Positions 9,406-35,999 of a stretch of DNA of 64,000 bases are shown here, piece by piece. How positions within the stretch are numbered: position 1 is the first letter of the stretch; each line of letters starts with the position of its first letter. The notes under the pieces are model-generated. The model was given only the letters and a program-made list of their open reading frames with translations, had not been told where the DNA came from and did no database searches. The position numbers were made by a program, and so were the translations under genes. This DNA is from Steroidobacter denitrificans (GTDB lineage Bacteria; Pseudomonadota; Gammaproteobacteria; Steroidobacterales; Steroidobacteraceae), in contig JBEBRC010000001.1 of assembly GCA_040395055.1 (NCBI GenBank), positions 4,542 to 68,541 of the forward strand. The letters are read 5' to 3'.

Positions 9406-11028
9406 TCACAGCGATCCGGGAACAATCGGATTGAATGCGATCAATCCATCCAGGCTGCCGCCGGTCCCCAGCGCATTGCCAAAGCGGGCATTGAAGCTGC
9501 CCGCCTCCCCATGCAGCGCCATGTAGTTCAACAGCACGGTCTGCACCAGCAGATTCACATTGTTCGCAGCCGGGCTGCTCGAAGTCACGACGTCGCCGCC
9601 GGCGCTGTAATAGCCGAGCTGCTGATGGCGTGCCTCGGAGCCGCTGGTCAACAGCACAGGCCTGCCTCCCAGCGCCGGCGGGTTGTAGACCAGGAAGAAG
9701 GAAGCAGCGACCTGCTGGTTGTCGCCGGTCCATTCGCCCTTGCCCCTGCCGTCCTGCGAATCGTCGATACGGCCGTTGGACGACAAGGAGCCGTCGCTGA
9801 AGACATACAGCATCAGAGGCTTGCCGCGGCGAGCGGCAAATTCCAGGCAGGCCCCCATGCAGCGGCCGGCGCGCAGATCCCGCAGCTCACCCGTCGAGCG
9901 CTCGCCGGTGTGATAGTCGAATCCACCCATGCTGACCGTGCCCGCCCCGGCATAACCCTCGATTACCAGCTTCATCACCGCCGCCGTCTTTTCGAATTCC
10001 CGGTCGTTGCCGAAGTTCGGCCCGAACACGCCGCCGGCGCCGGTGATATCCGGATCGGCGGCGGGATTGATGGCGGCCGGACTACTGAACTTGTCGACGG
10101 TGTCGGCGGTCTTCACGTAGCCGCACTTGACCTGGGTCTTCAGTTCCGAGCCACTCGCCACCAGCGGATCGACCGCATCCAGCTTCTGTTCGGTGATGCG
10201 CGCCATCTGCTCCATGACCGCCACCGTCGAGGCCGTATCGGGCGATCCGTCCGGCTTGGTGAACAGGGTGCCGAGTGCACCGGTATCCACCAGCCCCGTC
10301 GCATCGCCGGTCCGGTCGACCTTGGTCGGCCGGTTCTCGGGCGTCATGAGCATCGCCGGCGCCATGGAATTGCCGCCGGATTCGGAGTTCTGCGAACCGA
10401 TGAGCGTCAGCAGCTCGCCGCGTGCGCCGGCGCGCGCGATCCCGTACATCGGATTATGGGGATTGTTCCCGGTGTCGTTCTCGGAGCGTGCCGCGATCAC
10501 CGCGCCATTGATGCCCGCGCGCGTGGCCGGGCTGGTCTTCTCGAGAATGCCGCGCAGGAAAGCGCTATCGGAATGAAACGCCAGGCCCAGCTGGGTATCG
10601 ATGAAATTCGTGGTCGCGTTGTTGGGCAGCATGTCGCCAGGCAGCCCCTGCTTCGAGTAGCCCTGGGTGGACAGGAAATCGAGCTGGCCTCCCGACTGCC
10701 CGACCAGCACATTCGAACCGCTCATGCTGGCGCCGCCTGCCAGATCGAAGCAGATGAAGGGAATCTTGCCCGCCCCCTGCTGAATGTTGCAGATCGCGGG
10801 CGAATCGGCCAGGTAGCGGATGTCGGGCGACAGGAATGATTCCTGGGCCCGGGCCGAGCGCGGGTTCAACAGCGCCGCCAGCATCCCCGGCGCGACCACC
10901 GTGGCGGCGCCGCTCAAGAATCCCTGGGCCAGGAAGTCGCGCCGTGATACGGGACGCTTGTGCGATCCGTGCTTGAGCGGTTCGTCGACATGTAGCCGAC
11001 GTTTCTTGCGGGACTTGATAATCAGCAT
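9406..11028 (-). CDS. Tat-exported DUF1501-like (alkaline-phosphatase-superfamily-like) protein of unknown function
   Basis: Twin-arginine signal (SRRDFLAQGFLSGAATVV...ARAQE). DUF1501-like motifs from memory (FDLAGGAS, GGFDYHTGE). ATG at 11028 is preceded by GAGG. Last gene of the minus operon. Confidence 0.7.
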   Translation of the reverse strand: MLIIKSRKKRRLHVDEPLKHGSHKRPVSRRDFLAQGFLSGAATVVAPGMLAALLNPRSARAQESFLSPDIRYLADSPAICNIQQGAGKIPFICFDLAGGASMSGSNVLVGQSGGQLDFLSTQGYSKQGLPGDMLPNNATTNFIDTQLGLAFHSDSAFLRGILEKTSPATRAGINGAVIAARSENDTGNNPHNPMYGIARAGARGELLTLIGSQNSESGGNSMAPAMLMTPENRPTKVDRTGDATGLVDTGALGTLFTKPDGSPDTASTVAVMEQMARITEQKLDAVDPLVASGSELKTQVKCGYVKTADTVDKFSSPAAINPAADPDITGAGGVFGPNFGNDREFEKTAAVMKLVIEGYAGAGTVSMGGFDYHTGERSTGELRDLRAGRCMGACLEFAARRGKPLMLYVFSDGSLSSNGRIDDSQDGRGKGEWTGDNQQVAASFFLVYNPPALGGRPVLLTSGSEARHQQLGYYSAGGDVVTSSSPAANNVNLLVQTVLLNYMALHGEAGSFNARFGNALGTGGSLDGLIAFNPIVPGSL

Positions 11029-11078
11029 GACTGCCTCGTCGACGAACAACCGGCGAACCATGACGCTTTCATGGTTCG

Positions 11079-13613
11079 CTACCGAATGAGAACCGCGCCG
11101 CTACCCAGCACGGCGCCGCAAGTGGCCTTGGCCACCAGCCGGGTACGGTCCGCGGAGCAGCTGCCGCCGCAATTGGCAAGCTGTCCGACCAGTGCATACA
11201 AGCCCGGGCGCGCCGGCTCGCCGGCCGGCGCCGTCCCCCCCTTCAAGCTGGTACCGAGCGGCTGCGTGGCAAGTCCGGTACCGATCATTCTTTCTATAAG
11301 CGGGTCGATCAGCAGATCCTTGCCAGCGTCCGAGGCAAAGACCGTGCTTGCCGCCCCGCCCAGATCCAGGCCCGGGAAATAGCTGGACGCAGCAGGCGAC
11401 TCGATCAGCGCATCGCAATATTGGATCGCAAGCTGCGCGATGGCGGTCTGATGGGATGAAAGGAACGCCTCGATGCCGTGCGTGGCCGGCAACGATTGCC
11501 GCACGTTCGAGAACACCGCTTTCACCGCGGCGGTGTTCGGATCGACCCCCGTCACCGCCGCCATCGTGGCGTTGATGCCATCGAAGGTGCGTACGCCGAT
11601 GTCTGGCGGACGCGGCACATCGGCAACGCTCGACGAGCCTACGCTGGCATAGTTCGAGCAAACGCCGGAACTGGCGCCGAGCTGATCGAAGCACAGGAAG
11701 AATTCGTCCTCATCCGCTCCGCGCTCCACCGCGATGATGGTGCCGATGCTCGACAGCGCCTGGCCACCCGCAGCCGAATAACCGGCATCGCTGATCACCG
11801 TATCGAGCAAGCGATAGGCCTGTCCGACGTGCGGCTCGACGCCATTGACGCCAATGCGCATGCCGCGCAGAACGATGCTTCCCGGCGTCGCCGCCGGATC
11901 CAGGCTGATGAATTTCGGATTGTTGAACAAATATCCGTAGCTGTCGTACTGCGAGACTTCGAACAGGATGTACGAGCGCGGCATGTTCACCAGATGTTCG
12001 ACGCCGAACAGCAGGAAGAACTTTTCGCCGACCCCGGCCTCGAAGTTCTGCTGGATCTGCTGCAGGGTCAACGCACGGTTGTGAACCGCCACCATCCTGA
12101 TCACACCCGTCCACTGGCGATCGTTGCTGACCTCGTTGCCGAGCACGAACGCGAAACTGTTGTCCCAGTCCCCGAGGGTGCCTCCGCCTGCGCTGTCGAG
12201 ATCGCCCGTGAACTCTCCATTGACATGGATGCGCCGGCCGTTCACCGGATCGAACGTCACGACCACATGCTGCAGGGAAGCCTGCAGACGCTGGTCGGCA
12301 TCGGGGGTCGAGAGCCGAGGCAGCCCGTTGGCGTCGGTCGCGGTACTGCGCCCGAGGAAATCGTAGCTGTAGAGAGTCTGGCCCAGGGTAAAGTTCCTGG
12401 CGGTGGCGCTGCCGGAATAGCTCACGATCCGCGTATCTTCCTGGGTCACGTTGCCTGGCGTGACCCAGGCTTCTATCGAGTATTCACCGGTGGCGGTGAT
12501 CAGCTGATGAAATTTACGGCTCGCCGTCGTCGATGCCTGTGCTTTGCCGGTACGCACGTTGATGCCCCAACCCCCGACCCACGACACGTCGCCCGATAGC
12601 GTCAGGTCGGCGGCCGGGTCCTGCCCGCTGGTATCGTACGCCGTGGCGCCCACACCGCTCTTGAACTCGTACAGTGCGATAAGATTGTTTTCATAGCGAT
12701 TGCCGCCGCTGGCGACGGTGCCGTCACGCAAGGTCAAGGCCTTGCTGACAACCATGCCGGGATCGATCTGTGTGGTATCGATGGCATCCGACATCGCCTG
12801 GATGGCCGCCCGCATGGCTGCCGCATCCTGCTTGCAGTCCGCGCTCCAGCAGTTGTGCGATTCGCGCTCCAGGCGAATCACCAGTCGCGAATCGGCGGGC
12901 TGGTCGAGATTGATTTTCGGAATCGCGGCGTTGTACGCCTCGGCATGCACTGCCAGCGATGGATTGAACGGACGCTCGCCGGCGGCGAAATAAGGTGACT
13001 GGGGCGTTGCGGCGTTGGATTGATGGCAGTCGGAACAGAACCGGTCCAACAGATCGTACACCGCTGCGAACTCCGCCGGCGGCGTCGCGGGGAAACGCTT
13101 GCTCGCACCCGGATCGAGCGCAATCGGCGCCTCCAGTTCGATCTGCCGTCCACCGCTCGCGCTCTCGCCCACCCAGTCCTGGATCCAGCGCGCCAGGATG
13201 CTGGCACAGGCACCGGCGTCCGCCAGCCAGCAGTTATGGCCGCCACCAACCTTGGTGACCATGAGCGACTGCCCGGGAAAGTCGCGATCCACGGTCGCGG
13301 CGGCTTGCTGGTAGGCCGCGTTCACATCATCGGAGCGCGCAAACTGCGGTGCCTGGCCGCCCGCCCCATGGCAGTTGCCGCAACGATTGCCGCCGCGCAC
13401 GTTCTCCCAGAAATTGACCCGGAAGGACTGGATGTCGGCCGGCGCCGGCGACGGCGCCCCCGAAACACGACCCCCCCCAGGTCCGGTTGTAACCGGATTG
13501 GTCTCGGTCGAGGCGCCGCCCCCCCCACCCGCCCATGCGATGACGCCAAACAAGGCCAGCACCGCAAGGCCTGCGACACTGCCGCGAGTGGGGTGTTTGG
13601 GAATGCGCATCAT
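11079..13613 (-). CDS. Large exported protein with two N-terminal CxxCH...HNCW modules, a central LamG/concanavalin-like domain and a C-terminal domain of unknown function
   Basis: N-terminal hydrophobic signal or anchor. CGNCH is encoded at 13368-13382 and CSDCH at 13023-13037. LamG-like stretch (LYEFKSG...EYSIEAWV...FVLGNE...WTGVIRMVAVHNRALT). ATG-ATG at 13613/13610 with AAGGAAG upstream. Confidence 0.75.
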   Translation of the reverse strand: MMRIPKHPTRGSVAGLAVLALFGVIAWAGGGGGASTETNPVTTGPGGGRVSGAPSPAPADIQSFRVNFWENVRGGNRCGNCHGAGGQAPQFARSDDVNAAYQQAAATVDRDFPGQSLMVTKVGGGHNCWLADAGACASILARWIQDWVGESASGGRQIELEAPIALDPGASKRFPATPPAEFAAVYDLLDRFCSDCHQSNAATPQSPYFAAGERPFNPSLAVHAEAYNAAIPKINLDQPADSRLVIRLERESHNCWSADCKQDAAAMRAAIQAMSDAIDTTQIDPGMVVSKALTLRDGTVASGGNRYENNLIALYEFKSGVGATAYDTSGQDPAADLTLSGDVSWVGGWGINVRTGKAQASTTASRKFHQLITATGEYSIEAWVTPGNVTQEDTRIVSYSGSATARNFTLGQTLYSYDFLGRSTATDANGLPRLSTPDADQRLQASLQHVVVTFDPVNGRRIHVNGEFTGDLDSAGGGTLGDWDNSFAFVLGNEVSNDRQWTGVIRMVAVHNRALTLQQIQQNFEAGVGEKFFLLFGVEHLVNMPRSYILFEVSQYDSYGYLFNNPKFISLDPAATPGSIVLRGMRIGVNGVEPHVGQAYRLLDTVISDAGYSAAGGQALSSIGTIIAVERGADEDEFFLCFDQLGASSGVCSNYASVGSSSVADVPRPPDIGVRTFDGINATMAAVTGVDPNTAAVKAVFSNVRQSLPATHGIEAFLSSHQTAIAQLAIQYCDALIESPAASSYFPGLDLGGAASTVFASDAGKDLLIDPLIERMIGTGLATQPLGTSLKGGTAPAGEPARPGLYALVGQLANCGGSCSADRTRLVAKATCGAVLGSGAVLIR

Positions 13614-13626
13614 GCTCGAAGCTTCC

Positions 13627-14946
13627 TTAATTGCCGGCGCAGTACGCCGCGGTCTCGGCAAAGACGTGCTTCAGGTTGCCCGTGCCTTTGAAGGTCGCGG
13701 TGCTGTTGCCGACCTGAAGACGATCCTGATCGTCGCTCGGGGAACGAAAGCAGATCGTACGAAATACCTTCTCTACCTGGCATTGGGCAAACGCGTCGCT
13801 ATGGGACAGCTCCTCACCCAACGACTTCGCTCCATTGCCGTGACCGGGGCCCGCCGCCCAGCCCAGCGACGTATTGCGCCCCGGCAAGCGCCAGTAGTTG
13901 TCCCAACGATCATCCGGCGTCACGAAGCCGGGTTTGAAGTTGTCGGAGTTGATCAGGTATTTCGGTTGTACTTGTCCCGCGGTGTAGACCAGCCGGCCCT
14001 GCTCCGGATCAGCGTCGTACTGGAAGGTGTAGTAGGCGAAGGCCTGGGTCATCGGGTCCATGCCGGTATGGCAGCCGACGCAATTATTGTTGAAGACGCT
14101 GCTGTCGCCCCCCGGGCTGCGCGTTACGTCCTGGCGGATGCGATCCGGCGGCAGCGAAGGATCGTGCACCTGCTCCAGGTCCCGGCACAGATGATTGAGC
14201 AACGTAAAGCGAAACATCGCGCGGTTCGTACCGTCGATGAAGAAGGCCCGGGCCGCGGCGCGGGAGGTAATGACGCCGGCGGTCGCGCTCGAGGGCAAGC
14301 CGTTGAGCGAAGACTGGGCCGTGGAGGTGAGCACCAGGCGCAGGTCCGCGTTATCGCTTTCCAGCGCTTCGTAATGCGCGTTGCTGGTCGGTGAATAGGC
14401 CGGCGAGACACCGCTGCCGACATATACGATGTCGTCCACGAGAATGCTGCGGAAATCCACCTCGTCGCGCACGACCCCGATGACGGTCGCGGTGTAGTCG
14501 TTGAGCGGCGCGAAGACGGCCTGGTCGCGATTCGTCCAGGGGGTCGCGAAATTCTTCAAGGTAACGTTGTAGAAGTTCTTCGAACGCTCGCTGCCCGGAT
14601 CCATGATGTACAGCGCCGCGCCGACCGGATCGCTCTGCACCCTGGTTGCCAGGTCGGTGAGCAAGGCGGGAGAGGGCGAGGTGCCGGTCAGCCGGTCGTA
14701 CATGCGTTTCGCGCGCTCGCGCGGCCCGGCGGCCGCTGGCTGCAGTCCGGCGGCGAAAGCCGCGAGCGCAAGGACCACCACCATGGCGATCCTCGAGGAG
14801 GGGCGTCGCGTCCTGCCGCGCCACGCGGGCCGGTCGTGCGCGGCTGCGGCCTTGTCGCTCATCGGCGCCCGCTGCGCGCTGCCATCGGCCAGGCGCGCGC
14901 GCGCGCCGGCGCACGATGTCTTCCGTATATCGTTCATGCTACCCAT
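13627..14946 (-). CDS. Exported DUF1588/PSD-like protein with one CxxCH motif
   Basis: Signal peptide (RIAMVVVLALAAFAAGLQPAAAG). CVGCH is encoded at 14068-14082, followed by ...GMDPM, which resembles the C..CH..DP motif of Planctomycete-type PSD/DUF1588 domains (from memory). Start uncertain: 14946 has an AGGGGA SD; alternatives are 14937 and 14862. Confidence 0.65.
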   Translation of the reverse strand: MGSMNDIRKTSCAGARARLADGSAQRAPMSDKAAAAHDRPAWRGRTRRPSSRIAMVVVLALAAFAAGLQPAAAGPRERAKRMYDRLTGTSPSPALLTDLATRVQSDPVGAALYIMDPGSERSKNFYNVTLKNFATPWTNRDQAVFAPLNDYTATVIGVVRDEVDFRSILVDDIVYVGSGVSPAYSPTSNAHYEALESDNADLRLVLTSTAQSSLNGLPSSATAGVITSRAAARAFFIDGTNRAMFRFTLLNHLCRDLEQVHDPSLPPDRIRQDVTRSPGGDSSVFNNNCVGCHTGMDPMTQAFAYYTFQYDADPEQGRLVYTAGQVQPKYLINSDNFKPGFVTPDDRWDNYWRLPGRNTSLGWAAGPGHGNGAKSLGEELSHSDAFAQCQVEKVFRTICFRSPSDDQDRLQVGNSTATFKGTGNLKHVFAETAAYCAGN

Positions 14947-15480
14947 GCCGGAATCCCCTGCGGACCCGTTGATCGGCCCTTGATCGGTCACGTCTGTGCG
15001 GCGGCGTGCGCGCATCCGGCCCGCCATCCCACTACAGTGCGAACGACTATACGATTCGCAGGATGTAGCAGTAATCTGTCTCAATCGTCAGACGTCGCCT
15101 GCAAGAGACAGTACCGGCCCCAACCCACGCGCGTGTAGTCTCGCCGCCAGCCGACATCCTCGGCGTGCGGCCAATCGATGCCATCCCATTCAACTTCGAA
15201 GGCAATGCGAGGAATGTGATCGACGTCACGCAATCGAGCGCTGCGAGGTGCCGCAACAGGAGCAATCGGCAAATTCGTGCGCTCGTCGCTGGCTTGCCGG
15301 ATCATGGAATATGCTTCATCGGCAAGCATGCCTCGGCATGACAGGTGCGCAGGCCGAAGACTTTGGGGAACACGCTGCATGGGGCATGAGGTCGAAACAA
15401 TCGTGGGTTGCGCGCATCAGGCCGCTGGCCGCGTCGGCGTAAGGCCCCTTGCCCGCCTGCGTGCCGGGGCAGGCAAGGCC

Positions 15481-18207
15481 ATGGCAGGCGCCGTGGTGAT
15501 GGCCATGCTCGGCGCCTGCAGCAGCGGCAGCGGTGGCACGGACGTGACGATCGGCAGCGGTCAGAACGCCGACCCGGTGACGCTCGATTTCCCCGTGTTC
15601 TACGTCAAGCGGCCAGTACCGGATTCGCAAGACAATGCCGCCCAGGCGGATGCTCGCCGGCTACGCCGCTTCGACATCGGCGCCGACCTGTTCATGCGCG
15701 ATCGCGCCTCGATCTCCGCGGCCGAGATCAACCTGACGGCCGGGCACACGCAAGGCCTGGGCGATGTGCGCGATGTCGAGGTGAGCTTCGATGGCGCCAA
15801 GGTGGTCTTTTCGATGCGCGCGCAGTTCATCGAAAACGCCGCCGAGGAACAGCAGCCGACGTGGAATATCTGGGAGTACGACACCGCCACCAGCAGCCTG
15901 CGCCGCGTCATCCAGTCGGACACGGTTGCACAAGAGGGGCATGACATCATGCCCCACTACCTGCCCGACGGCAGAATAGTATTCTCCTCCACACGCCAGC
16001 GGCAATCACGCGCCATCCTGCTGGATGAAAGCAAGCCGCAGTTCGCCGCCCAGGACGAGGACGATCGTGAGCCCGCGTTCGTGCTGCACGTCATGGAGGC
16101 CGATGGCACCAACATTCACCAGGTGTCCTTCAACCAGAGTCACGACCTGGATCCTGCGATCCTGCCGGACGGCAGGATCGTCTTCACACGCTGGGAGCAT
16201 CATAGCGACGACAGCCAGTTCGACCTGTACAGCATGAACCCGGACGGGACCGCTCTGGAACTGTTGTACGGTGCGAACAGCCATGAGACCGGCACGCCCG
16301 ACCCTGCCACCGGGCGACCCGCCACCATTCAGTTCCTGAATGCTCGAACGATGCCGGATGGACGCACGCTGGCGCTGATCCGACCGTTCCAAGGCACCGG
16401 CGAAGGGGGCGACCTGGTGCTGATCGACACCGACAACTACGTCGACGACACCCAGCCGCTCGCAGCCAGCGAGGGGATGAGCGGACCGGCGCAAGTGCGC
16501 GCGCTGCCGACCGACGTGCGCACCATCGCCGGTCCATCACCCGGCGGGCGATATCGCTCCGCCGCCGCATTGTTCGATGGTACGGATCGCCTGCTCGTGA
16601 GTTGGTCGCAATGCCGCCTGGTGGACGCCACGCGCATCGTGCCCTGCACCAGCGAACGACTGGCCGACCCGGATGCCGTCGAAGCCCCGCCGCTGTATGG
16701 CTTGTATATCTATGATCTGCGCGACAACACGCAGCAGCCTATCGTCGTGCCGCAGGAAGGCTTCATCTACACCGAGGTCGTTTCCGGCTCCTCGCGCCCG
16801 CTGCCGCCGGTCATCCTGGATCGCGTCCCGGGCGTCGATTTTGCCGATGATCTGCTGGCGCAAAGTGTCGGCGTCCTGCACATCCGCAGCGTGTACGACA
16901 TGGACGGCGTCGACCAGGCACCCGGCGGCATCGCCGCCGTGCGCGATCCCGGCAATGCCGCCTATGCCACGCGGCCGGCGCGTTTCCTGCGCATCGAGAA
17001 GGCCGTCTCCCAACCGGATGACGCGACGCGTGATGTGCCGGGCACGGCGTTCGGCCCGCAGCGCTCGCTGGGCATGCGCGAAATCCTCGGCTACGCGCCG
17101 ATCGAGCCGGACGGATCGGTCAAGGTCAAGATCCCCGCCAACGTAGCCTTCGGCATCAGCGTGCTGGACGCCAGCGGGCGGCGCCTGCCGGCGCCGCTGG
17201 GCAATCGGCACACCAACTGGCTGCAGGTATTGCCCGGCGAAGTGCTGGAATGCAATGGCTGTCACAATCCGAACAGCGATCCGCCGCGCGCTCACGGCCG
17301 GCGCGGCCTGAGCGCTTCGGTCAACGAGGGCGCACCGACCACCGGCAGCGCCTTCCCGAACACCAACGCCGCCCTGTTCGCCGATATGGGTGAAACCATG
17401 GCGCAAGTACGCAATCGCATCATGTGCGCCGGCACCATCGCCTGCGAACCAAGCGTCGACGTTGCCTTCCAGGACTACTGGCCGGCGGCGCCGATTGCGC
17501 CCGCAGCAGCGGTGGATCTTTGCTATGCCCGCGGGATCTCGACGGTGCAGAGCGACCCGGCCGATCCGACGGCGCGCGTCGCATGCGAGAACGCACTGAG
17601 CACGCCGCTGCCGACTCCTGCCGGCTGCCTGGCGCAATGGCACAGCGGTTGTCGTATCACGATCCATTACGAGCAGCACATTCATCCCTTGTGGAGCAAG
17701 GAGCGCACGGTCGATGCCGACCTCGACGGCATCCCGGACCTGGACCCGGACAACGCCGCGCTGGTGATCAACCACCGCTGCAACGGCTGCCACCTGCCCG
17801 CGAATGCGATGGGCGCCCTCGATGTGCCGGCGGGCGATCTGGACCTGAGCGATGGCCCCTCCGAGGAGGAGCCGGATCGGTTCCGGGCCTATCGCGAGCT
17901 GCTGTTCGCCGACCGCGGCCAGATCCTGGATGCGAACGGCCAGCTGGCTGACGAGTGCCTGCAGATCGAGATCGATCCGGTCACGAATGTCGAGACCTGC
18001 ATCGCGTACCGCAATGTGCCCGCCTCGATGAGCGCCGCGGGCGCCCGCGCCTCTGCCCGGTTCTTCGACACCCTGGAAGGACGCCGGGTGGGCAGGGTCG
18101 ACCATAGCGACTTTATGTCGCCGAGTGAGTTACGCTTGCTCTCCGAATGGCTGGATATCGGCGCGCAGTACTACAACGATCCGTTCGCGGCAGCCCCGGA
18201 GAATTGA
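15481..18207 (+). CDS. Lipoprotein with a TolB/PD40-like beta-propeller and two CxxCH motifs (HzsA-related-like)
   Basis: Lipobox MAMLGAC. Repeated propeller signatures (HYLPDGRIVFSSTRQ, ILPDGRIVFTRWEH, MNPDGTALELLYG). CNGCH is encoded at 17251-17265 and again at 17779-17793. The start could be 15379. Confidence 0.75.
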   Translation: MAGAVVMAMLGACSSGSGGTDVTIGSGQNADPVTLDFPVFYVKRPVPDSQDNAAQADARRLRRFDIGADLFMRDRASISAAEINLTAGHTQGLGDVRDVEVSFDGAKVVFSMRAQFIENAAEEQQPTWNIWEYDTATSSLRRVIQSDTVAQEGHDIMPHYLPDGRIVFSSTRQRQSRAILLDESKPQFAAQDEDDREPAFVLHVMEADGTNIHQVSFNQSHDLDPAILPDGRIVFTRWEHHSDDSQFDLYSMNPDGTALELLYGANSHETGTPDPATGRPATIQFLNARTMPDGRTLALIRPFQGTGEGGDLVLIDTDNYVDDTQPLAASEGMSGPAQVRALPTDVRTIAGPSPGGRYRSAAALFDGTDRLLVSWSQCRLVDATRIVPCTSERLADPDAVEAPPLYGLYIYDLRDNTQQPIVVPQEGFIYTEVVSGSSRPLPPVILDRVPGVDFADDLLAQSVGVLHIRSVYDMDGVDQAPGGIAAVRDPGNAAYATRPARFLRIEKAVSQPDDATRDVPGTAFGPQRSLGMREILGYAPIEPDGSVKVKIPANVAFGISVLDASGRRLPAPLGNRHTNWLQVLPGEVLECNGCHNPNSDPPRAHGRRGLSASVNEGAPTTGSAFPNTNAALFADMGETMAQVRNRIMCAGTIACEPSVDVAFQDYWPAAPIAPAAAVDLCYARGISTVQSDPADPTARVACENALSTPLPTPAGCLAQWHSGCRITIHYEQHIHPLWSKERTVDADLDGIPDLDPDNAALVINHRCNGCHLPANAMGALDVPAGDLDLSDGPSEEEPDRFRAYRELLFADRGQILDANGQLADECLQIEIDPVTNVETCIAYRNVPASMSAAGARASARFFDTLEGRRVGRVDHSDFMSPSELRLLSEWLDIGAQYYNDPFAAAPEN

Positions 18208-18947
18208 TGTCCCGTCTGATTTCGCTGCTGGGCCTGCTGGCTTGCTTTTGGACGCTGGCGGCACAGGCTGACGACCCCCTCAGGATTCTGATCGCCGACC
18301 CGTTCATCGAACTGCATACCGGACCGGGACGCGGCTACCCGATATTCCATGTCGTCGAGCGCGGCCGGGAAGTCACGCTTCTGAAGCGGCGCACCGACTG
18401 GTTCCAGGTGCGCACGGACCGGGGCATCGAGGGCTGGGTCCCGCGGGCACAGATGATCGCGACCCTCGAGCCGACCGGCGAACCCCTGGACCTGGAGGAA
18501 CCCGCGCGCGAGAATTACATGAGCCGCCGCTGGCAGGCAGGGATCATGGCCGGCGACTTCGCCGGCGCCAGCCTGATCTCGGCTTTCGGCGGTTATTCGT
18601 TCAGCGACAACTTGTCGATCGAGCTGGCGTTCAACCATATCCTGGGCGAATTCTCCAACGGCTACAGCGCAACCATCGGCCTCATGCACGTGTTCGTGCC
18701 CGAGTGGCGCCTGTCGCCCTACTTCACGCTGGGCACAGGCATCATACACATCGAGCCCAAATCGACGTTGGTACGCGCCGTCGACCGTGACGACCAGATC
18801 GGCTATGTCGGCGGTGGGCTGCAGTTCTATCTCACGCGGCGTTTCATGCTGCGCACGGAATACCGCAACAACGTCATTTTCACCAGCCGCGACGACAACG
18901 AGGAAGTGGACGAATGGAAGTATCTCGGGTTCGCCTTCTTTTTCTGA
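18207..18947 (+). CDS. Bacterial SH3 domain fused to a small outer-membrane beta-barrel
   Basis: ATG at 18207 overlaps the upstream TGA (TGATG). Signal peptide (LLGLLACFWTLAAQADD). SH3-like region (GREVTLLKRRTDWFQVRTDRGIEGWVPRAQM). C-terminus ...WKYLGFAFFF. Confidence 0.75.
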   Translation: MSRLISLLGLLACFWTLAAQADDPLRILIADPFIELHTGPGRGYPIFHVVERGREVTLLKRRTDWFQVRTDRGIEGWVPRAQMIATLEPTGEPLDLEEPARENYMSRRWQAGIMAGDFAGASLISAFGGYSFSDNLSIELAFNHILGEFSNGYSATIGLMHVFVPEWRLSPYFTLGTGIIHIEPKSTLVRAVDRDDQIGYVGGGLQFYLTRRFMLRTEYRNNVIFTSRDDNEEVDEWKYLGFAFFF

Positions 18948-19621
18948 CCGCGGCCGCTGCCGTCGTCCTGCCCGGTTGCGCGTGGATCGGCAGCGATCGC
19001 ACCGACGCGCCGCCGCAGTCCGTCCCCCCCGTATCGACGCCGGCCGGAACCGGCGAGCCCGCCGAGCGCTCGGTCATCGAGCCGCAGGTCGAGCGCCGCG
19101 AGATCCGGCGCGCGCGCATCGACACGGAAGATTTCGAAATCGGCGCATATGCCGGCATCCTCAGCATCGAGGACTTCGAGAGCAATGTCGTGTACGGCGC
19201 GCGCCTCGCCTATCACCTGACCGAGGATTTTTTCCTGGAGGCAACGCTGGGCCGTTCGCGGGCCGGACGCAGCAGCTACGAGAAACTATCCGGCTCCGCG
19301 CAACTGCTCAGCGACAGCGAGCGCGACTACACCTACTACGCGCTCTCGGCTGGATGGAATGCCCTGCCGGGGGAGATCTTCGTCGGCAAGAACCGTTCCT
19401 ACAATTCGGCGTTCTATCTGCTGGCCGGTCTGGGAAGTACCCGCTTCGCTGGTGACGACCGTTTCACGGTCAGCGGCGGATTCGGCTACCGCGTCCTGCC
19501 TGCCGACTGGATCGCCGTGCACTTCGACGTGCGCGACCATGTATACGACATAGATCTGCTGGGCGAGAAGAAGATCGTCAATAATTTAGAAGCGCATCTC
19601 GGACTGTCGTTTTTCTTCTGA
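18914..19621 (+). CDS. Outer-membrane beta-barrel lipoprotein
   Basis: Lipobox VVLPGC. Alternating amphipathic strands. C-terminus ...LEAHLGLSFFF. Overlaps the upstream gene by 34 nt. Confidence 0.7.
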   Translation: MEVSRVRLLFLTAAAAVVLPGCAWIGSDRTDAPPQSVPPVSTPAGTGEPAERSVIEPQVERREIRRARIDTEDFEIGAYAGILSIEDFESNVVYGARLAYHLTEDFFLEATLGRSRAGRSSYEKLSGSAQLLSDSERDYTYYALSAGWNALPGEIFVGKNRSYNSAFYLLAGLGSTRFAGDDRFTVSGGFGYRVLPADWIAVHFDVRDHVYDIDLLGEKKIVNNLEAHLGLSFFF

Positions 19622-19626
19622 GCACC

Positions 19627-20169
19627 ATGCATCCTGGACCACCCTGGCTACAGGCATCTCGAACCATGCTGCTGCGAAACCTCGATCGTTGGCTCCGAAT
19701 CTGCGCACTGTCCGCTGCGCTGGCGATGTCGTCGCTGGTCGGCGCCAGCACCTCCAGCGCACCCAACTTCACGCTGCCCGCACGCGAGGGCGGGCAGATA
19801 TCGCTGGAGCAGCTCAAGGGCCAGGTAGTGATGCTCAATTTCTGGGCCAGCTGGTGCGGTCCCTGCCGCCAGGAGATGCCCTTGCTGGATACGATGTACC
19901 AGCGCTACAGCGCCCTGGGATTCACCCTGCTGGGCGTGAATGTCGAGGCAGACACCCAGGATGCCGAGCGCTGGCTCGCCCAGACACCTGTCTCTTTTCC
20001 GGTACTGTTCGACAAGGACAGCCAAGTGAGCAAACTGTACGACGTCAGTGCCATGCCCAGCACCGTATTCATCGATCGCAAGGGCAACGTGCGTTATCTG
20101 CACCGCGGCTACAAGCCTGGCGACGAAGGCGAGTACTTGAACCAGATTCGCGCATTGCTGAAAGAGTGA
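19627..20169 (+). CDS. TlpA/ResA-family periplasmic thiol:disulfide oxidoreductase
   Basis: Signal or anchor segment, then VVMLNFWASWCGPCRQEMP (WCGPC active site) and the AMPSTVFIDRKG cis-Pro loop. The start may be the internal Met at 19666. Confidence 0.85.
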   Translation: MHPGPPWLQASRTMLLRNLDRWLRICALSAALAMSSLVGASTSSAPNFTLPAREGGQISLEQLKGQVVMLNFWASWCGPCRQEMPLLDTMYQRYSALGFTLLGVNVEADTQDAERWLAQTPVSFPVLFDKDSQVSKLYDVSAMPSTVFIDRKGNVRYLHRGYKPGDEGEYLNQIRALLKE

Positions 20170-20251
20170 GGCCCCTGTGACCGCTCCGATTATCGAGGAT
20201 TGCAGCCGGACGCGCAGCGCGGCAAACCATGCGGCGAGACCCGGTACCCGG

Positions 20252-20494
20252 ATGCGCGCACGGGCGCGCGGCGTTCTTTCCGCGCTGGCCCTGGCCACCG
20301 CCGCCCTGGGTAGCGGCGGCTGCGGCAACATCGAACCCTGGGTCAAGCCTTACGAACGCCAGGCACTTGCCGATCCGATCATGTCGCTGGATCGCAATCC
20401 GGTTTCGACGGCATACATGCAGCACGTATTCGAAGCGCGCGAAGGCGCACGCGGCGCGCGCGGCAGTGCGGGCGGCGGTTGCGGCTGCAACTGA
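20252..20494 (+). CDS. DUF4266-like small lipoprotein
   Basis: Lipobox ALGSGGC. WVKPYERQALADPIMSLDRNP core. Characteristic C-terminus GGGCGCN (family assignment from memory). An alternative GTG start lies at 20177. Confidence 0.75.
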   Translation: MRARARGVLSALALATAALGSGGCGNIEPWVKPYERQALADPIMSLDRNPVSTAYMQHVFEAREGARGARGSAGGGCGCN

Positions 20495-21750
20495 TGCGTG
20501 ACCCAGGCATGAGCAAGGCGCCCGTGGCCCCCGTGGCCAGTGCCGCACACCGCGGCGGTGCTCGAGGAGCATTCACGCTGGCATGGCTCGCGCCCATTTT
20601 CCTTGCAACCGGGTTCGCGGCCGCCCATGCCGGCGTATTGGCCGAAGATCGCGCCGACGTTCTCTATCATCGCTACCAGGGCGGCGGCGTTACGATTCAC
20701 GGGCCCTCGGTGCTGGTACGCAAGAAAATGGCGGAAAAATATGCCGTCAGCGCCAACTACTACACCGACATGGTCACCAGCGCCTCCATTGACGTCGAAG
20801 TCAGCGGTGCCAGCGAATACAAGGAGCAGCGCGATCAGTACAGCCTCGGCTTGGAGTATCTTCGCGGCAAGACCATTTACAGCCTGGGCTACAGCAACAG
20901 CAAGGAAAACGATTACCAGGCCGAAACCGCCTCCTTCGGCATCAGTCAGGATTTGTTTGGCGATCTGACGACGATCACCATGGGTTTTTCGAAAGGATCG
21001 GATACGGTGCGCAAGCGAGACACGATCACCGACCGCGTCGATCCGAATTTCAACGAACCCATCGATCGCTGGAACTACCGGGTCGGCGTTTCGCAAGTCA
21101 TGACCAAGACCTTGATCATGGTCCTGGACCTGGAGGTCATCACGGACGAGGGCTACCTCAACAATCCGTATCGCTCGTACCGCTATATCAATCCAAGCGA
21201 CGAGCGATTGTTCGCGCTCGATGCGGAGGTTTATCCGCGCACTCGAACCAGCAACGCGGTGGCGCTGAATGCTCGCTATTTCCTGCCCTACCGCGCTGCC
21301 TTGCACGGCGGTTATCGCTTCTTTACCGATACCTGGGGTATCGGCTCCAATACCTTCGAGCTGGGGTACACTCATCCGCTGGGAAAGGAATGGATCTTCG
21401 AGGCGAGCTATCGCCACTACACCCAGGACCGCGCCGACTTCTATAGCGATTTGTTCGAGCGGCGCGACGAACAGAATTTCATGGCGCGCGACAAGGAGCT
21501 CTCGACCTTCAGCAGCCAGACGTTCAGAATCGGCGCCAGCTATGAATTCGCCTCCACCGGATGGCGCTTCGTGAAGAAAGGCACCGTCAATATCTTTTAC
21601 GACCGTATCGAGTTCGACTACGAGGACTTCCGGGATGCTCGCTACTCGTTGCTGCCAGCGACCGATCCGCGCTTCCGTCCAGTCGGCTCGGAACCGTTCT
21701 ACGCTTTCGGCGCCAACGTATTCCAGGCATTCGTTTCGATCTGGTTCTGA
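20494..21750 (+). CDS. DUF3570-like outer-membrane protein
   Basis: ATG at 20494 overlaps the DUF4266 TGA (TGATG); an alternative ATG lies at 20509. Signal peptide ...GFAAAHA. Motifs ADVLYHRYQGGGVTIHGPSVLVRKK and VSANYYTDMVTSASIDV. C-terminus ...AFVSIWF. Confidence 0.75.
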   Translation: MRDPGMSKAPVAPVASAAHRGGARGAFTLAWLAPIFLATGFAAAHAGVLAEDRADVLYHRYQGGGVTIHGPSVLVRKKMAEKYAVSANYYTDMVTSASIDVEVSGASEYKEQRDQYSLGLEYLRGKTIYSLGYSNSKENDYQAETASFGISQDLFGDLTTITMGFSKGSDTVRKRDTITDRVDPNFNEPIDRWNYRVGVSQVMTKTLIMVLDLEVITDEGYLNNPYRSYRYINPSDERLFALDAEVYPRTRTSNAVALNARYFLPYRAALHGGYRFFTDTWGIGSNTFELGYTHPLGKEWIFEASYRHYTQDRADFYSDLFERRDEQNFMARDKELSTFSSQTFRIGASYEFASTGWRFVKKGTVNIFYDRIEFDYEDFRDARYSLLPATDPRFRPVGSEPFYAFGANVFQAFVSIWF

Positions 21751-21771
21751 ACCAGAAGAACCCTCGCCGGC

Positions 21772-22752
21772 ATGAGGCGGCGCGCCAGCGGCGGCATCGC
21801 AGTGGGCACGGTGTGTCTGCTGGCCTCTGGCGGCGGCGCACTTGCCTCCCCCGCACTTCCCACCCGGGACCAGAATCCTCTGCTCGCGGGGTTCGGGTTG
21901 CCCATGCCATTCCCCTCGCGCCCGGTCCGCGATGCGGAGGTCCTGTCGATCGACCTGAACTGGAGCAATACCGCACTCGCCCAGACGGACGGATCGCAGT
22001 ACCTGCTGGTCGATGCCGAGACGCGCGAGCTGCGGCTCACCTATCGCGGATCGTTGACGAAACATCTCGCCTTCGGGCTGCAAATCCCTTACCGGTATAC
22101 CGGCGCCGGCGTGCTCGATGGCTTCATCGATGGTTGGCATGACGCCTTCGGGCTGCCGCAGGGAGTCCGCCCGGCGCTGGCGAGAGATCGCATCCGTATC
22201 CGGTACTCGCGCGACGCCACGCAGCGTATCGATGTCGAGACTTCCGCCCAGGGACTGGGCGATGTCTCGGCCGATGTCGGCTATGGCCTGGTCGATACGG
22301 CCTCCTCCTCCGCCATGGCCTGGCTTAGCCTCAAGTTGCCGACGGGGCAAACCGGCCGTCTGGCGGGAAGCGGTGCCGCCGACGTCACGCTGGCCGTGGC
22401 GGCCGAACATCGCTGGGATGCACGATGGTCCGCCTACGCGCAGATCGGCGTGACCTGGCTTGGGGAAGGCGACTTGCTCCCGGATCAGCAGCGCAACCTG
22501 GTCTGGAGCGGCCTGGCCGGGATGAGCTGGCGCATCGGGCCTCGACTGGCGCTCAAGGCCCAGGCGGACGCCCACTCCGCCGCTTTCACGGGCACGCGGC
22601 TGGATATGCTCGGCGAGGCACTCATTCTGAGTATCGGTGCCGACTATCGATTCGCCTCGGGGTGGCAATTGGACCTGGGCTTTAGCGAAGACGTCGCGGT
22701 CGAAGCGTCGCCCGACATCGTATTCATCGTCGGCGTGCGCCGATCGCTGTAG
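21772..22752 (+). CDS. DUF3187-like outer-membrane protein
   Basis: Signal peptide. LPTRDQNPLLAGFGLPMP start. Barrel-like repeats. C-terminal ...FSEDVAVEASPDIVFIVGV. Family assignment from memory. Confidence 0.6.
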   Translation: MRRRASGGIAVGTVCLLASGGGALASPALPTRDQNPLLAGFGLPMPFPSRPVRDAEVLSIDLNWSNTALAQTDGSQYLLVDAETRELRLTYRGSLTKHLAFGLQIPYRYTGAGVLDGFIDGWHDAFGLPQGVRPALARDRIRIRYSRDATQRIDVETSAQGLGDVSADVGYGLVDTASSSAMAWLSLKLPTGQTGRLAGSGAADVTLAVAAEHRWDARWSAYAQIGVTWLGEGDLLPDQQRNLVWSGLAGMSWRIGPRLALKAQADAHSAAFTGTRLDMLGEALILSIGADYRFASGWQLDLGFSEDVAVEASPDIVFIVGVRRSL

Positions 22753-22857
22753 CGCGCGGCCTCAGCGCCCTGCGGCCGCCCGGGAGGCGGGAAGCATGAG
22801 TTCTTGCACGCCTCGCCAGCGGTCGATCGACCCGAGCGACTAAAAGCTAGCGGTTTT

Positions 22858-22873
22858 ACACATATATATGTGT
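22858..22873. promoter_or_regulatory. Perfect 16-bp AT-rich palindrome ACACATATATATGTGT upstream of the cytochrome bd operon; candidate operator or promoter element
   Basis: Read directly. It is the only strongly AT-rich patch in the 22753-23018 intergenic region, about 145 nt upstream of the ATG at 23019. Confidence 0.3.
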
Positions 22874-23018
22874 GCTGCCTGCATGGGCATAATCCGCTGG
22901 TGTCCGGATTCATTCAGCGAGGCCGCTGCTGGATGGCTTCTTCCCTCGCGATGCGGCGACCGCAGGGTGGCGAGCTCGGACCTGGCGCGCGACCGCCCCC
23001 ATCGTTTCCGAGAAGCCA

Positions 23019-24455
23019 ATGCTTGGACTGACAGCACTCGAGCTCGCGCGGATACAGTTCGGCTTCACGATATCGTTTCACATCATATTCCCGGCCATCA
23101 CGATCGGCCTGGCGAGCTATCTCGCCGTCCTTGAAGGTCTGTGGCTGTGGAAAAAGGAGACGGTGTATCGCGATCTCTATCATTTCTGGTCCAAGATCTT
23201 TGCCGTCAATTTCGCCATGGGTGTCGTCTCCGGGCTGGTCATGGCCTACCAGTTCGGCACCAATTGGAGTTATTTCTCGGCCTTCGCCGGTTCCATCACC
23301 GGACCGCTGCTTGCCTATGAGGTGTTGACCGCCTTCTTTCTCGAAGCCGGATTCCTCGGCGTCATGCTGTTCGGATGGAACCGGGTGGGTCCGGGCCTGC
23401 ACTTCTTTTCCACCATCATGGTCGCGCTTGGCACGCTCATCTCCGCCACCTGGATCCTTGCTTCGAACAGCTGGATGCACACCCCTCAGGGTTTCGAAAT
23501 CATCGACAACGTCGTGGTGCCGGTGAATTGGCTGCAAGTGATCTTCAATCCCTCGTTCCCGTACCGGCTGGCGCACATGACCGTCGCCGCATTCCTCGCC
23601 ACCGCAGCCTTCGTCGGGGCCTCCGCGGCATGGCATCTGCTGCGCGGCAACGACAACGACCGCATCCGCACCATGCTCTCCATGGCGATGTGGATGCTGC
23701 TGCTGGTGGCGCCCGTCCAGGTCTTGATCGGCGACCTGCATGGCCTGAACACGCTGCAGCACCAGCCGGCCAAGATCGCAGCGATAGAAGGCCACTGGGA
23801 AAACAAGCCCGGCGAGGGCGTACCGCTGATCCTGTTCGGTTGGCCCGACATGAAAGAGGAAACGACACGCTACAAAATCGAGATCCCCAAGCTGGGCAGC
23901 TATATCCTCACTCGCGATTGGAACGGCCAGTTTCCCGCCCTCAAGGAGTTTGCCGCCGAGGATCGCCCCAATTCGACGGTGGTGTTCTGGAGCTTTCGCA
24001 TCATGGTCGGGCTGGGAGCGCTGATGCTGCTGCTCGGCGCCTGGGGAGCGTGGCTGCGCTGGCGCGGCGCGCTCTACCGGCAGCGGCATTTCCTGCACTT
24101 CGCCGCCTGGATGGGACCGTCGGGCCTGATCGCCATTCTCGCCGGCTGGTATACGACCGAAATCGGCCGCCAGCCCTGGATCGTGCACGGCGTCATGCGT
24201 ACCAAGGATGCCGTGTCGGGTCATTCGGTGCTGACGATGAGCGTCACCCTGCTGGTATTCATCGTTGCCTATTTCATCGTCTTCGGCATCGGCGCGCGTT
24301 ACATGCTCAGGCTGGTCGGCGAGGGGCCACAGGTCGCGCCGGACGAACCGCCGGATGCCGATTCGCGACCGCATCACCGGCCGGCAAGGCCGCTGTCGGC
24401 CGCGCCCGATCACGTCGGTGCGCACGGGTCGCCCACGGGCGAGCAGGGAGGATGA
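23019..24455 (+). CDS. cydA: Cytochrome bd-type ubiquinol oxidase subunit I (short Q-loop, CioA-like)
   Basis: MLGLTALELARIQFGFTISFHIIFPAITIGLASYLAVLEG... and GWYTTEIGRQPWIVHGVMRTKDAVS signatures. 478 aa. Confidence 0.93.
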   Translation: MLGLTALELARIQFGFTISFHIIFPAITIGLASYLAVLEGLWLWKKETVYRDLYHFWSKIFAVNFAMGVVSGLVMAYQFGTNWSYFSAFAGSITGPLLAYEVLTAFFLEAGFLGVMLFGWNRVGPGLHFFSTIMVALGTLISATWILASNSWMHTPQGFEIIDNVVVPVNWLQVIFNPSFPYRLAHMTVAAFLATAAFVGASAAWHLLRGNDNDRIRTMLSMAMWMLLLVAPVQVLIGDLHGLNTLQHQPAKIAAIEGHWENKPGEGVPLILFGWPDMKEETTRYKIEIPKLGSYILTRDWNGQFPALKEFAAEDRPNSTVVFWSFRIMVGLGALMLLLGAWGAWLRWRGALYRQRHFLHFAAWMGPSGLIAILAGWYTTEIGRQPWIVHGVMRTKDAVSGHSVLTMSVTLLVFIVAYFIVFGIGARYMLRLVGEGPQVAPDEPPDADSRPHHRPARPLSAAPDHVGAHGSPTGEQGG

Positions 24456-24458
24456 GGG

Positions 24459-25466: not shown

Positions 25467-25483
25467 AAGTGCGACAAGTGCCG

Positions 25484-25627
25484 ATGAGCGTTGCCTCCGG
25501 CGCGCCGAAGTCATGGCTCAAACGCTTTGGCTGGCTGGCGCTGATCTGGGTTCTTGGCGTCGCGGCGCTGGGCATCGTAGCGGTAATCTTTCGCCTGCTG
25601 ATGAATGCCGCCGGACTGACGGCCTGA
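25484..25627 (+). CDS. DUF2474-like small membrane peptide (47 aa) linked to cioAB-type operons
   Basis: Immediately downstream of cydB. One TM segment (WLKRFGWLALIWVLGVAALGIVAVIFRLLM). It appears in the track only as the tail of a long shadow ORF. A GTG at 25469 is an alternative start. Confidence 0.6.
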   Translation: MSVASGAPKSWLKRFGWLALIWVLGVAALGIVAVIFRLLMNAAGLTA

Positions 25628-25708
25628 GCAGGGTTGCCGCACCAGGCGACGCGCTGCGGCAGACGTAGCCGCGCATGCATCCACCCCGAGCGCGCTTGCG
25701 GCAGCCGG

Positions 25709-28730: not shown

Positions 28731-28752
28731 AGGTAGCGGCCCGCCCATTGCA

Positions 28753-34967: not shown

Positions 34968-35999
34968 TCAACTTTCGCCTTCGCTCCAGTCCAGATACGC
35001 CTGGAATTGAGGCGTCGCACGCCTGTGCAGCCGCCCATCGCGCCATTCGATGAACATGACCGGCATCTGGCGCTGCGCGGCCAGGTCGTATCCCGGCTGC
35101 GCACCCAGAACGTTGAAGGCGGTCGCCCAGGCATCGGTATGCATCGAGGTCGGGCCAATCACGACCACGGAAGCCAGGGCATGCGCGACCGGCTTCCCGG
35201 TGCGCGGATCGATCGTATGAGAATATCGCCGGCCGTCGCGCTCGTAATAGCGTCGATACTCGCCCGAGGTGGTCACGGCCATGTCCTGCAGCTGCACGAT
35301 GGCGTACGGCGCCGGCTCGGCGTCGACCGGCCGCTCCACCGCCACCCGCCATGGGCCGCCTCGTGCATTCAGGCCGACGGCCAGTACTTCGCCGCCGATG
35401 TCGATCATGTGGCGCCCGATACCCATCGACGACAATCGCGCCGAAAGCAAGTCGACCGCATAGCCCGGCGCAATGCCATTCAAGTCGATTTCCAGATCGG
35501 GCACATCCTTGCGCAAGGCGAACGGCTGCATGCTCACGTGCAGCTTGCGGTAACCCACCCGTCGACGCAGCGCATCCAGATCAGCGTCCTGCGGCAGCGA
35601 TACCGGCTGCGCCGCCGGACCGAATCCCCAGGCCGCCACCATCGGCGCCAGCGTCACATCGAACGCCCCACCCGACAGTTCGCTGAACTCGAGCGCCGCC
35701 CGAACGAGCCGCGCAAGATCGGCGGACACCGGGAACCATTGCGTCGACGCGGAGGCATTGAAGCGCGAGACCTCGGAGTCGGCCCGATAGCTGGACATGG
35801 CCAGGTCGATACCGGCCAGCACCTCCTCGGTCGCATGGCGTATGACCGCCTCGTCCAGGCCCGGCGGCGGCTCGATCACCTTCACCGAGTACGTCGTCCC
35901 CATCGTGGGTCCGGAAATCGACAGCTCGGCAGGCCGTTTCGCACAGCCCATGAACGCCAGCAGCAGGGTCGGGACAATCAGGACAATCGTTCGATTCAA
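34968..35999 (-). CDS. apbE: FAD:protein FMN transferase (ApbE family) lipoprotein
   Basis: Lipobox LLAFMGC followed by GPTMGTTYSVKV. Also DLNGIAPGYAVD, AVTTSGEYRRYY and HTIDPRTGKP motifs. The start codon is apparently TTG. Confidence 0.88.
   Translation of the reverse strand: MNRTIVLIVPTLLLAFMGCAKRPAELSISGPTMGTTYSVKVIEPPPGLDEAVIRHATEEVLAGIDLAMSSYRADSEVSRFNASASTQWFPVSADLARLVRAALEFSELSGGAFDVTLAPMVAAWGFGPAAQPVSLPQDADLDALRRRVGYRKLHVSMQPFALRKDVPDLEIDLNGIAPGYAVDLLSARLSSMGIGRHMIDIGGEVLAVGLNARGGPWRVAVERPVDAEPAPYAIVQLQDMAVTTSGEYRRYYERDGRRYSHTIDPRTGKPVAHALASVVVIGPTSMHTDAWATAFNVLGAQPGYDLAAQRQMPVMFIEWRDGRLHRRATPQFQAYLDWSEGES

Follow-up and report, generated by a model that had tools for sequence, protein, structure and literature searches.

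The window considered here is a stretch of 64,000 nucleotides from a contig of Steroidobacter denitrificans (JBEBRC010000001.1), and the gene in question, at 15481-18207 on the forward strand, encodes a lipoprotein related to HzsA, the alpha subunit of the hydrazine synthase of anammox bacteria. The initial annotation made this gene the leader of a seven-gene operon, and seven co-directional, tightly packed genes are indeed found from 15481 to 22752 with the HzsA-related gene first, its stop codon overlapping the start of gene 2 (TGATG). From the same region of 400 nucleotides a three-gene operon diverges on the reverse strand (9406-15084), the genes of which are here called U1, U2 and U3. Here, I show that the HzsA-related gene belongs to a cluster of nine to ten genes for secreted thiol, flavin and haem proteins, which is the main new result of this work (Table 1).

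The neighbours of the gene were counted by tblastn over 81 loci (47-77% identity; the best 80 of at least 592 loci carrying the gene in 185,579 species-representative genomes, one per species). Nearly all of these best 80 loci are gammaproteobacterial, namely from Steroidobacteraceae, Woeseiaceae, Sedimenticolaceae, symbionts of tubeworms and lucinids, and Lentisalinibacter. The order and orientation of the cluster are constant across the loci, contig ends accounting for most of the absences, and the same arrangement is recovered by independent gene calls with Pfam labels in Peristeroidobacter soli, Hahella aquimaris and Aliiglaciecola lipolytica. The genes that flank the cluster vary by lineage (methyltransferase, Ysc84, LemA, rhomboid, MsrA and tetratricopeptide repeat (TPR) proteins) and provide no consistent functional hint; gene 7, encoding the DUF3187 protein, is a lineage-specific addition. 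Two further genes accompany the cluster elsewhere and are absent from the window: one product is secreted and has about 190 residues (29 of 84 compared sequences), the other contains TPR/coiled-coil regions and has about 630 (22 of 84). In Hahella these genes follow DUF3570, in Sedimenticolaceae they follow U3 (for example, locus L082, 16037-18593, and locus L054, 1739-4119). No paper describing the gammaproteobacterial HzsA-related family was found in the literature.

Table 1. Features of the window, the evidence on which each rests and, for the genes counted by tblastn, presence among the 81 loci
Feature	Position	Strand	Evidence	Loci (of 81)
HzsA-related dihaem lipoprotein gene	15481..18207	+	908 codons as given; open reading frame, Pfam, AlphaFold2 model/Foldseek	
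Lipobox cysteine Cys13 of MLGAC, then a flexible tether of ~20 residues	15517..15519	+	Conservation, homologue N-termini, model confidence (pLDDT)	
N-terminal PD40/TolB-type beta-propeller, ~residues 38-440, ~25 strands	15592..16800	+	PD40 match, model strands, Foldseek	
HZS_alpha middle domain, residues 526-596, ending in haem I motif	17056..17268	+	PF18582; HMMER alignment	
Haem I motif C591-N-G-C594-H595	17251..17265	+	Aligns with HzsA C583-x-x-C586-H587	
Haem II motif C767-N-G-C770-H771	17779..17793	+	Motif scan, conservation	
His875, candidate distal ligand of haem II	18103..18105	+	Aligns with HzsA His772	
Gene 2: SH3_3 plus small outer-membrane beta-barrel	18207..18947	+	SH3_3 8.2e-10, OMP_b-brl 6.8e-7	78
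Gene 3: lipoprotein, OMP_myx_plus outer-membrane beta-barrel	18914..19621	+	TIGR04565 9.1e-52	74
Gene 4: TlpA/ResA-like periplasmic thioredoxin (WCGPC)	19627..20169	+	AhpC-TSA/Redoxin 2.6e-30, NCBIfam ResA-like	52
Gene 5: DUF4266 small secreted protein, GCGCN end (CXC)	20252..20494	+	PF14086 9.9e-24	69
Gene 6: DUF3570, barrel-like, C-terminal Phe	20479..21750	+	PF12094 6.7e-42	68
Gene 7: DUF3187 barrel-like protein	21772..22752	+	PF11383 1.1e-42	7 (all Steroidobacter-like)
U1: secreted monohaem protein of ~410 residues (CVGCH)	13627..14862	-	No family model	69
U2: dihaem protein of ~840 residues (CGNCH, CSDCH, HNCW after each), Laminin_G_3	11079..13613	-	LamG_3 5.5e-19	61
U3: twin-arginine (Tat) exported protein of ~530 residues, unnamed family	9406..11061	-	RR motif, invariants	56
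ApbE flavin transferase	34968..35999	-	PF02424 1.3e-84; ~13 kb from cluster	26 (within 10 kb)
CRP/FNR-family-like palindrome TGTGATCGACGTCAC	15215..15229	.	Divergent promoter region	
Cytochrome bd oxidase cydAB	23019-25466			0
Pyrroloquinoline quinone (PQQ) dehydrogenase	4820-6802			1

As annotated, the gene is read as 908 codons with zero internal stops, lies within the longest open reading frame of the same frame (15277-18207) and has a GC content at third codon positions of 0.81, the value of the adjoining genes. Translation yields all of the strings that had been claimed for it, namely MLGAC (with Cys13), LPDGRIVFSSTRQ, LPDGRIVFTRWEH and MNPDGT, as well as the two CNGCH motifs placed some 175 residues apart in the C-terminal half, which start at residues 591 and 767, a spacing of 176. 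Residue conservation was assessed in a 60-sequence alignment, made up of the window protein and 59 representatives (36-65% identity), and in a second set of 84 further homologues. The lipobox cysteine is invariant in the former and kept in at least 90% of the latter, the N-termini of homologues all finish in L-x-x-C, and residues 12-30 of the structural model have a predicted local distance difference test (pLDDT) score below 50; judging from the conserved lipobox, the product is predicted to be secreted and lipid-anchored. Homologues are about 20 residues longer, with a basic n-region before the hydrophobic core, whereas the ATG at 15481 would leave a signal peptide that is unusually short and devoid of a basic n-region. 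Translation probably begins upstream of it, at an in-frame GTG at 15403, which fits the length of the homologues, is preceded by a Shine-Dalgarno-like GAGG and would give a lipoprotein signal peptide of standard type that ends in L-G-A-C. The choice of start does not affect the mature protein, which begins at the lipobox cysteine.

The initial annotation likened the architecture of a propeller followed by two haem-c sites to the HzsA-related family, and Pfam, profile searches of the Protein Data Bank (PDB) and Foldseek all support the resemblance. The Pfam models of both domains are matched, HZS_alpha (PF18582) over residues 526-596 at E 3.3e-12 and 47.2 bits, above its gathering cut-off of 26.6, and PD40 at E 1.9e-7. 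Searched against all PDB sequences, the single protein has a sole match, HzsA (5C2V_A, E 1.1e-6, in five collinear pieces), with the HZS_alpha domain pairing with chain residues 500-562 in the HMMER alignment, and a profile of the 84 homologues again retrieves 5C2V chain A alone (E 5.1e-15). An AlphaFold2 model built from the alignment of the 84 homologues is confident (mean pLDDT 88.7, predicted template modelling score 0.88) and is laid out as a propeller, a beta-rich middle domain up to the first CxxCH, and a C-terminal region of mixed structure in which the second is found. Its best match in the PDB by Foldseek is HzsA over the whole chain (5C2V_A, E 1.8e-26, template modelling score 0.52 by query and 0.61 by target, 16% identity), followed by TolB propellers over the N-terminal domain only (E 2.5e-11); designed six-bladed propellers and the six-bladed TolB are matched by the propeller as well. 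With TolB, the periplasmic propeller of the Tol-Pal system, the protein shares the PD40 blade motifs and the six-bladed fold, yet TolB has no haem domains, its match spans the N-terminal 45% only, and the window protein reaches 24.7 bits with the TolB equivalog, whose cut-off is 343.

Proteins of Steroidobacter and Peristeroidobacter that are 64-79% identical to the window protein carry the name 'HzsA-related protein' in NCBI and UniRef records, as do homologues in Hahella, Aliiglaciecola and Porticoccus. More than 6,000 of the candidates scored had E below 1e-5, those of Steroidobacter and Peristeroidobacter being closest, and an exhaustive search of the representatives of 50%-identity clusters returned 7,065 matches at E up to 1e-3, of which 566 have an E of 1e-30 or lower and more than 150, mostly full-length, fall below E 1e-121. 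The gene is a fresh member of a named but uncharacterised family.

Both haem motifs are under strong conservation in this family. Across the 60-sequence alignment C591, G593, C594, C770 and H771 are invariant, while H595 is found in 58/60 and C767 in 59/60, and both are present in 84/84 of the further homologues. Exactly two CxxCH motifs occur in 57 of the 60, and 83 of the 84 further homologues keep both, so that the motifs are not due to chance; the candidate distal ligand, His875, is likewise conserved among these relatives (57/60 and 84/84). In HzsA, haem alpha-II has two histidine ligands, the distal one being His772 (Hagglund et al. 2025, PMC12758564). The chain numbering of 5C2V_A in HMMER is that of the literature minus 27, and with the offset of 27 added His595 equals His587 of HzsA and His875 equals His772. 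A weak stretch of the profile (-2.5 bits, not significant alone) pairs the haem II motif with the second motif of HzsA, CAMCH. On these alignments, haem II is probably ligated by His771 and His875. Around haem I, four further residues are near-invariant down to 36% identity, namely His577, His605, Met532 and Met640; Met532 and His577 pair with Gln and Ala of HzsA, and His605 and Met640 fall outside the alignable region. Also invariant are His203, His221, Asp222, Arg237, Ser267, His268, Arg646 and Arg725.

The comparison with HzsA of Kuenenia stuttgartiensis (5C2V chain A) reveals a common plan, in which a propeller is followed by an HZS_alpha domain with a c-haem and by a C-terminal domain with a second one, the first CxxCH aligning with C583-H587 and His875 with His772. 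The differences are, however, extensive: the window protein is about 130 residues longer, only 16% identical, and a lipoprotein, whereas HzsA is a soluble protein of the anammoxosome. Haem alpha-I of HzsA is catalytic; Tyr591 is the ligand of its iron, and a zinc is coordinated by His587 together with Cys303, the latter not being conserved across all anammox bacteria (PMC12758564). At the position equivalent to Tyr591, four residues after the histidine of CxxCH, the window protein has Ser599, and in this column Ser is found in 62/84 homologues, Tyr falling outside the three most frequent residues. The propeller loop adjoining the Cys303 position reads Y-G-x-(H/N)-S-H and has no cysteine, the HMMER alignment ending one residue short of Cys303, and the invariant His and Met residues near haem I are additional to those of HzsA. 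The NCBIfam equivalog of the hydrazine synthase alpha subunit (NF052339, hydrazine_alpha) scores 40.8 bits, far below its cut-off of 800. No HzsB/HzsC-like or CCP_MauG-type gene was found with Pfam among the large open reading frames of the window, nor in the conserved cluster of the related loci. The family is carried by Gammaproteobacteria, cultured heterotrophs and sulfur-oxidising symbionts among them, and no anammox bacterium is included in these carriers. The identity of a hydrazine synthase was therefore rejected, on account of the equivalog score, the missing Tyr591 and the missing partner genes, and I hold with high confidence that the protein belongs to the HzsA-related family and is not a hydrazine synthase.

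Relatives of HzsA outside anammox bacteria have been described only in a few Planctomycetota and Desulfobacterota, as clades I-IV, which have a canonical His-ligated haem alpha-I pocket without Tyr591 and Cys303 and were judged incapable of hydrazine synthesis; such relatives were concluded to be few, to occur in anaerobes and to lack the bis-His site (PMC12758564). Clades I-IV and the family of the window are alike in being distant, non-anammox relatives devoid of Tyr591. The former, however, adjoin a fused HzsBC-like multihaem gene and often a CRTAC1/FG-GAP gene, quite different partners from those described here, and lack His772 or the entire haem alpha-II site, whereas the latter possesses both haems and the equivalent of His772, and belongs to the Gammaproteobacteria, a class not mentioned in that study. 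Being abundant, present in many cultured heterotrophs and symbionts, and in possession of the His772 equivalent, the family widens the pool of possible ancestors of hydrazine synthase. There is also a practical side to it, for matches to PF18582 and weak matches to hzsA serve as signs of anammox in metagenomic surveys; with at least 592 loci, and with 50%-identity clusters numbering more than 7,000, the HzsA-related family constitutes a large source of false positives, recognisable by the absence of Tyr591 and by gene context.

The divergent operon brings further haems to the cluster. The CxxCH of U1 is invariant in an alignment of 22 sequences, and so are the columns of the haem motifs of U2 among its orthologues. 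U1-U3 are 47-75% identical between gammaproteobacterial families, and mean column identity in U3 is as high as 75%. Apart from LamG_3 in U2, nothing meaningful was returned for U1, U2 and U3 by sequence profiles of Pfam, NCBIfam and the PDB, and none of 21 members of U3 had a Pfam match even at E 5. When the profiles of U1, U2 and the HzsA-related family were compared with one another, only the haem motif or the lipobox aligned. The structural model of U3 is of low confidence (pLDDT 53.7) because the alignment is too shallow in diversity; all of its 50 best Foldseek matches belong to the alkaline phosphatase superfamily, none being better than E 0.028, which is a weak hint of such a fold; Tat-exported members of that superfamily of the DUF1501 type are possible kin. 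Some public records label U3 as 'GspF', which is probably a misnomer. At the N-terminus of U2 (13490-13540) the window genome has Gly at the position of the lipobox cysteine (IAWAGGG, against L-x-x-C-G-G-G in the orthologues covered), and since Gly replaces this cysteine U2 is probably not lipidated here.

On the other side of the HzsA-related gene, the thioredoxin-like, DUF4266 and DUF3570 genes are consecutive in the operon. Orthologues of the thioredoxin keep WCGPC in 48/55 cases and those of DUF4266 the GCGCN terminus in 73/74. DUF3570 proteins are flavinylated by ApbE at [S/T]GA[S/T] motifs, and more than 500 clusters that bring ApbE together with DUF3570, a thioredoxin-like gene and DUF4266, with or without DsbD, have been proposed to encode an extracytosolic electron-transfer system that is uncharacterised (Meheust et al. 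2021, PMC8238504). The window shares with them the block of thioredoxin-like, DUF4266 (with its C-terminal CXC) and DUF3570 genes, and ApbE adjoins this block in many relatives, often directly after DUF3570, and beside U3 in Hahella. A difference is that the published description includes no cytochrome or HzsA-like partner, whereas in the loci compared here the HzsA-related gene and the two barrel genes always precede the module. This constant linkage to five haem motifs provides concrete candidate partners for the flavinylated DUF3570 system.

On balance, the HzsA-related protein probably serves an envelope electron-transfer system as its haem redox subunit, with the cluster working as one system. 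What I infer of the direction of electron flow, of the roles of the two haems and of the joint working of the cluster can be put as follows. The thioredoxin/DUF4266/DUF3570/ApbE module would tie the cluster to the reductant pool of the cell, reducing equivalents entering through the thioredoxin, DUF4266 and the flavin mononucleotide (FMN) of DUF3570, or else leaving by that route. Haem II, by analogy with HzsA, would be the electron-relay haem, its bis-His iron passing single electrons between haem I and partners such as DUF3570-FMN and/or the cytochromes U1 and U2. At haem I, presumably set against the propeller as in HzsA, a small substrate or a partner would be oxidised or reduced.

Several observations weigh against this reading. 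The ApbE gene of the window stands 13 kb away, and only 26 of the 81 loci have one within 10 kb; no DsbD is encoded in the window, which is a further departure from the published clusters; and the thioredoxin gene is absent from clusters of the Woeseiaceae type. As regards the flavin, the DUF3570 protein of the window has a single SGAS (residues 109-112) with TSAS before it, yet 54 of 67 orthologues, again in contrast to the published clusters, have no canonical [S/T]GA[S/T] and read SSAS...TTAS at the same positions. Synteny, though strong, was sampled in Gammaproteobacteria only, and no experimental work on the gammaproteobacterial orthologues was found in the searchable literature. Flavinylation of DUF3570 in the group of the window is plausible nonetheless, and because most orthologues read SSAS and TTAS, recognition by ApbE in this group may deviate from the published rule.

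Because Met640 and His605 are invariant, a pure electron carrier has to be taken as a serious possibility, albeit an unlikely one. Both haems would then be six-coordinate, haem I through His595 and either Met640 or His605 and haem II through His771 and His875, the propeller would dock partners, and catalysis would take place elsewhere, for example in U3 or DUF3570. Met532, Met640, His577 and His605 are all invariant and none has a counterpart where HzsA can be aligned; Met640, 45 residues past the CxxCH and at the start of a helix, occupies a typical position of a sixth ligand; moreover, the Tat-exported and extremely conserved U3 has the look of an enzyme. On the other hand, the haem domains and the propeller loop YGxHSH (263-268), at the site of Cys303 in HzsA, are conserved in the manner of an active site, and the equivalent haem of HzsA is catalytic (PMC12758564).

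It is rather improbable that adjacency merely reflects inherited gene order and that the protein is a stand-alone periplasmic enzyme, for example a peroxidase or one detoxifying nitric oxide or hydroxylamine. All sampled loci belong to one class, so that shared ancestry adds to synteny, the thioredoxin and ApbE genes vary in presence, and the DUF3570 clusters have been published without an HzsA-like partner, the part of the supplement consulted containing no HZS_alpha term (PMC8238504). Still, gene order is held at 47-50% protein identity while the flanks differ completely by lineage, overlaps of start and stop codons couple the genes, and the accessory genes of about 190 and 630 residues swap ends of the cluster yet remain with it.

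More improbable by far is a non-redox scaffold of the TolB type, or a relative of PD40-propeller peptidases, with incidental haem motifs. The propeller does match those of TolB and of S9/tricorn peptidases, and gene 2 carries a bacterial SH3 domain, a kind of domain often assigned to cell-wall binding; however, no peptidase domain was found in Pfam and NCBIfam scans of the protein, the two CxxCH and His875 rank with the best-conserved positions of the family, and the sole full-length structural match is a haem enzyme. Finally, a true hydrazine synthase alpha subunit, or an anammox-like formation of N-N bonds, is scarcely credible, for although the order of domains and the positions of both haems are those of HzsA, the top structural match and the sole one over the full length, the low score and identity, Ser599 in place of Tyr, the loop devoid of cysteine, the absence of HzsB/HzsC or cytochrome c peroxidase-like genes and the gammaproteobacterial carriers all stand against it.

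The preferred reading, a haem subunit of an envelope electron-transfer system, has a bolder and doubtful extension, according to which the cluster would be an undescribed redox machine associated with the outer membrane, leading from the thiols of the thioredoxin and DUF4266 to the flavin of DUF3570 and on to five c-haems (those of the HzsA-related protein, U1 and U2), with the HzsA-like protein as its catalytic component and a relative of the ancestor of hydrazine synthase. The active site, made of haem and propeller, might then act on small nitrogen or oxygen species or on a metal. If this were true, the HzsA-like protein would represent a living and culturable relative of the ancestor that was recruited as hydrazine synthase. 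The question is directly testable, some carriers being culturable or genetically tractable (Hahella, Alteromonas, Aliiglaciecola, Peristeroidobacter).

As to regulation, sites related to the palindrome of Table 1 (TGTGA-N6-TCAC / TTAACGG) precede the gene in 40 of 75 loci, where chance would give about 3; they lie 120-580 nucleotides upstream, mostly 120-340, and are often trailed some 20 nucleotides later by an element resembling a -10 box. Consensus scans of the 75 intergenic regions for Fur, FNR (TTGAT-N4-ATCAA), NsrR, OxyR and ArcA gave none or one match, an Rfam search of the divergent promoter region a sub-threshold chance match only, and simple scans of 9000-26000 for sigma-70 promoters and terminators were uninformative. 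Insect, leachate and soil metagenomes contain near-identical DNA. In one metatranscriptome, two contigs of 151 nucleotides map inside the HzsA-related gene with at most one mismatch, a faint sign of transcription and too little for a conclusion.

The initial annotation also drew attention to a cytochrome bd oxidase and a PQQ dehydrogenase in the region. Both are present, but a functional link to the cluster did not stand: CydA/B is nearby in 0 of the 80 related loci and the dehydrogenase in 1, and P. soli has the cluster without cydAB, so that the two are regarded as incidental. The cydAB genes lie 266 nucleotides past the end of the operon (22753-25466), where P. soli has an unrelated gene of 245 residues; since this site differs and none of the 80 loci has cydAB nearby, their presence looks like a lineage-specific insertion. 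Beyond them, at 25709-30174 on the reverse strand, are genes for a two-domain PPK2 polyphosphate kinase, a PAD_porph (agmatine deiminase-type) enzyme and a transporter of the major facilitator superfamily; PPK2 and PAD_porph also come after the cluster in P. soli, a conserved local synteny restricted to Steroidobacteraceae.

Farther along the window, a flavin adenine dinucleotide-dependent oxidoreductase (DAO) is fused to a C-terminal Rieske [2Fe-2S] domain (49998-51842, reverse strand) and adjoined by a hemerythrin-domain gene (48864-49481). The stretch 51626-57403 encodes partner-switching and two-component proteins, namely an RsbR-N/STAS protein, a HATPase_c_2-SpoIIE phosphatase fusion, a hybrid histidine kinase and a response-regulator/HWE-kinase fusion. 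A block for alpha-glucan metabolism (37611-48724) comprises three proteins of the alpha-amylase family, two of them with CBM48, and amid it are genes for osmoregulated periplasmic glucans, MdoG (42975-44678) and a family-2 glycosyltransferase, possibly MdoH-like (44663-46789).

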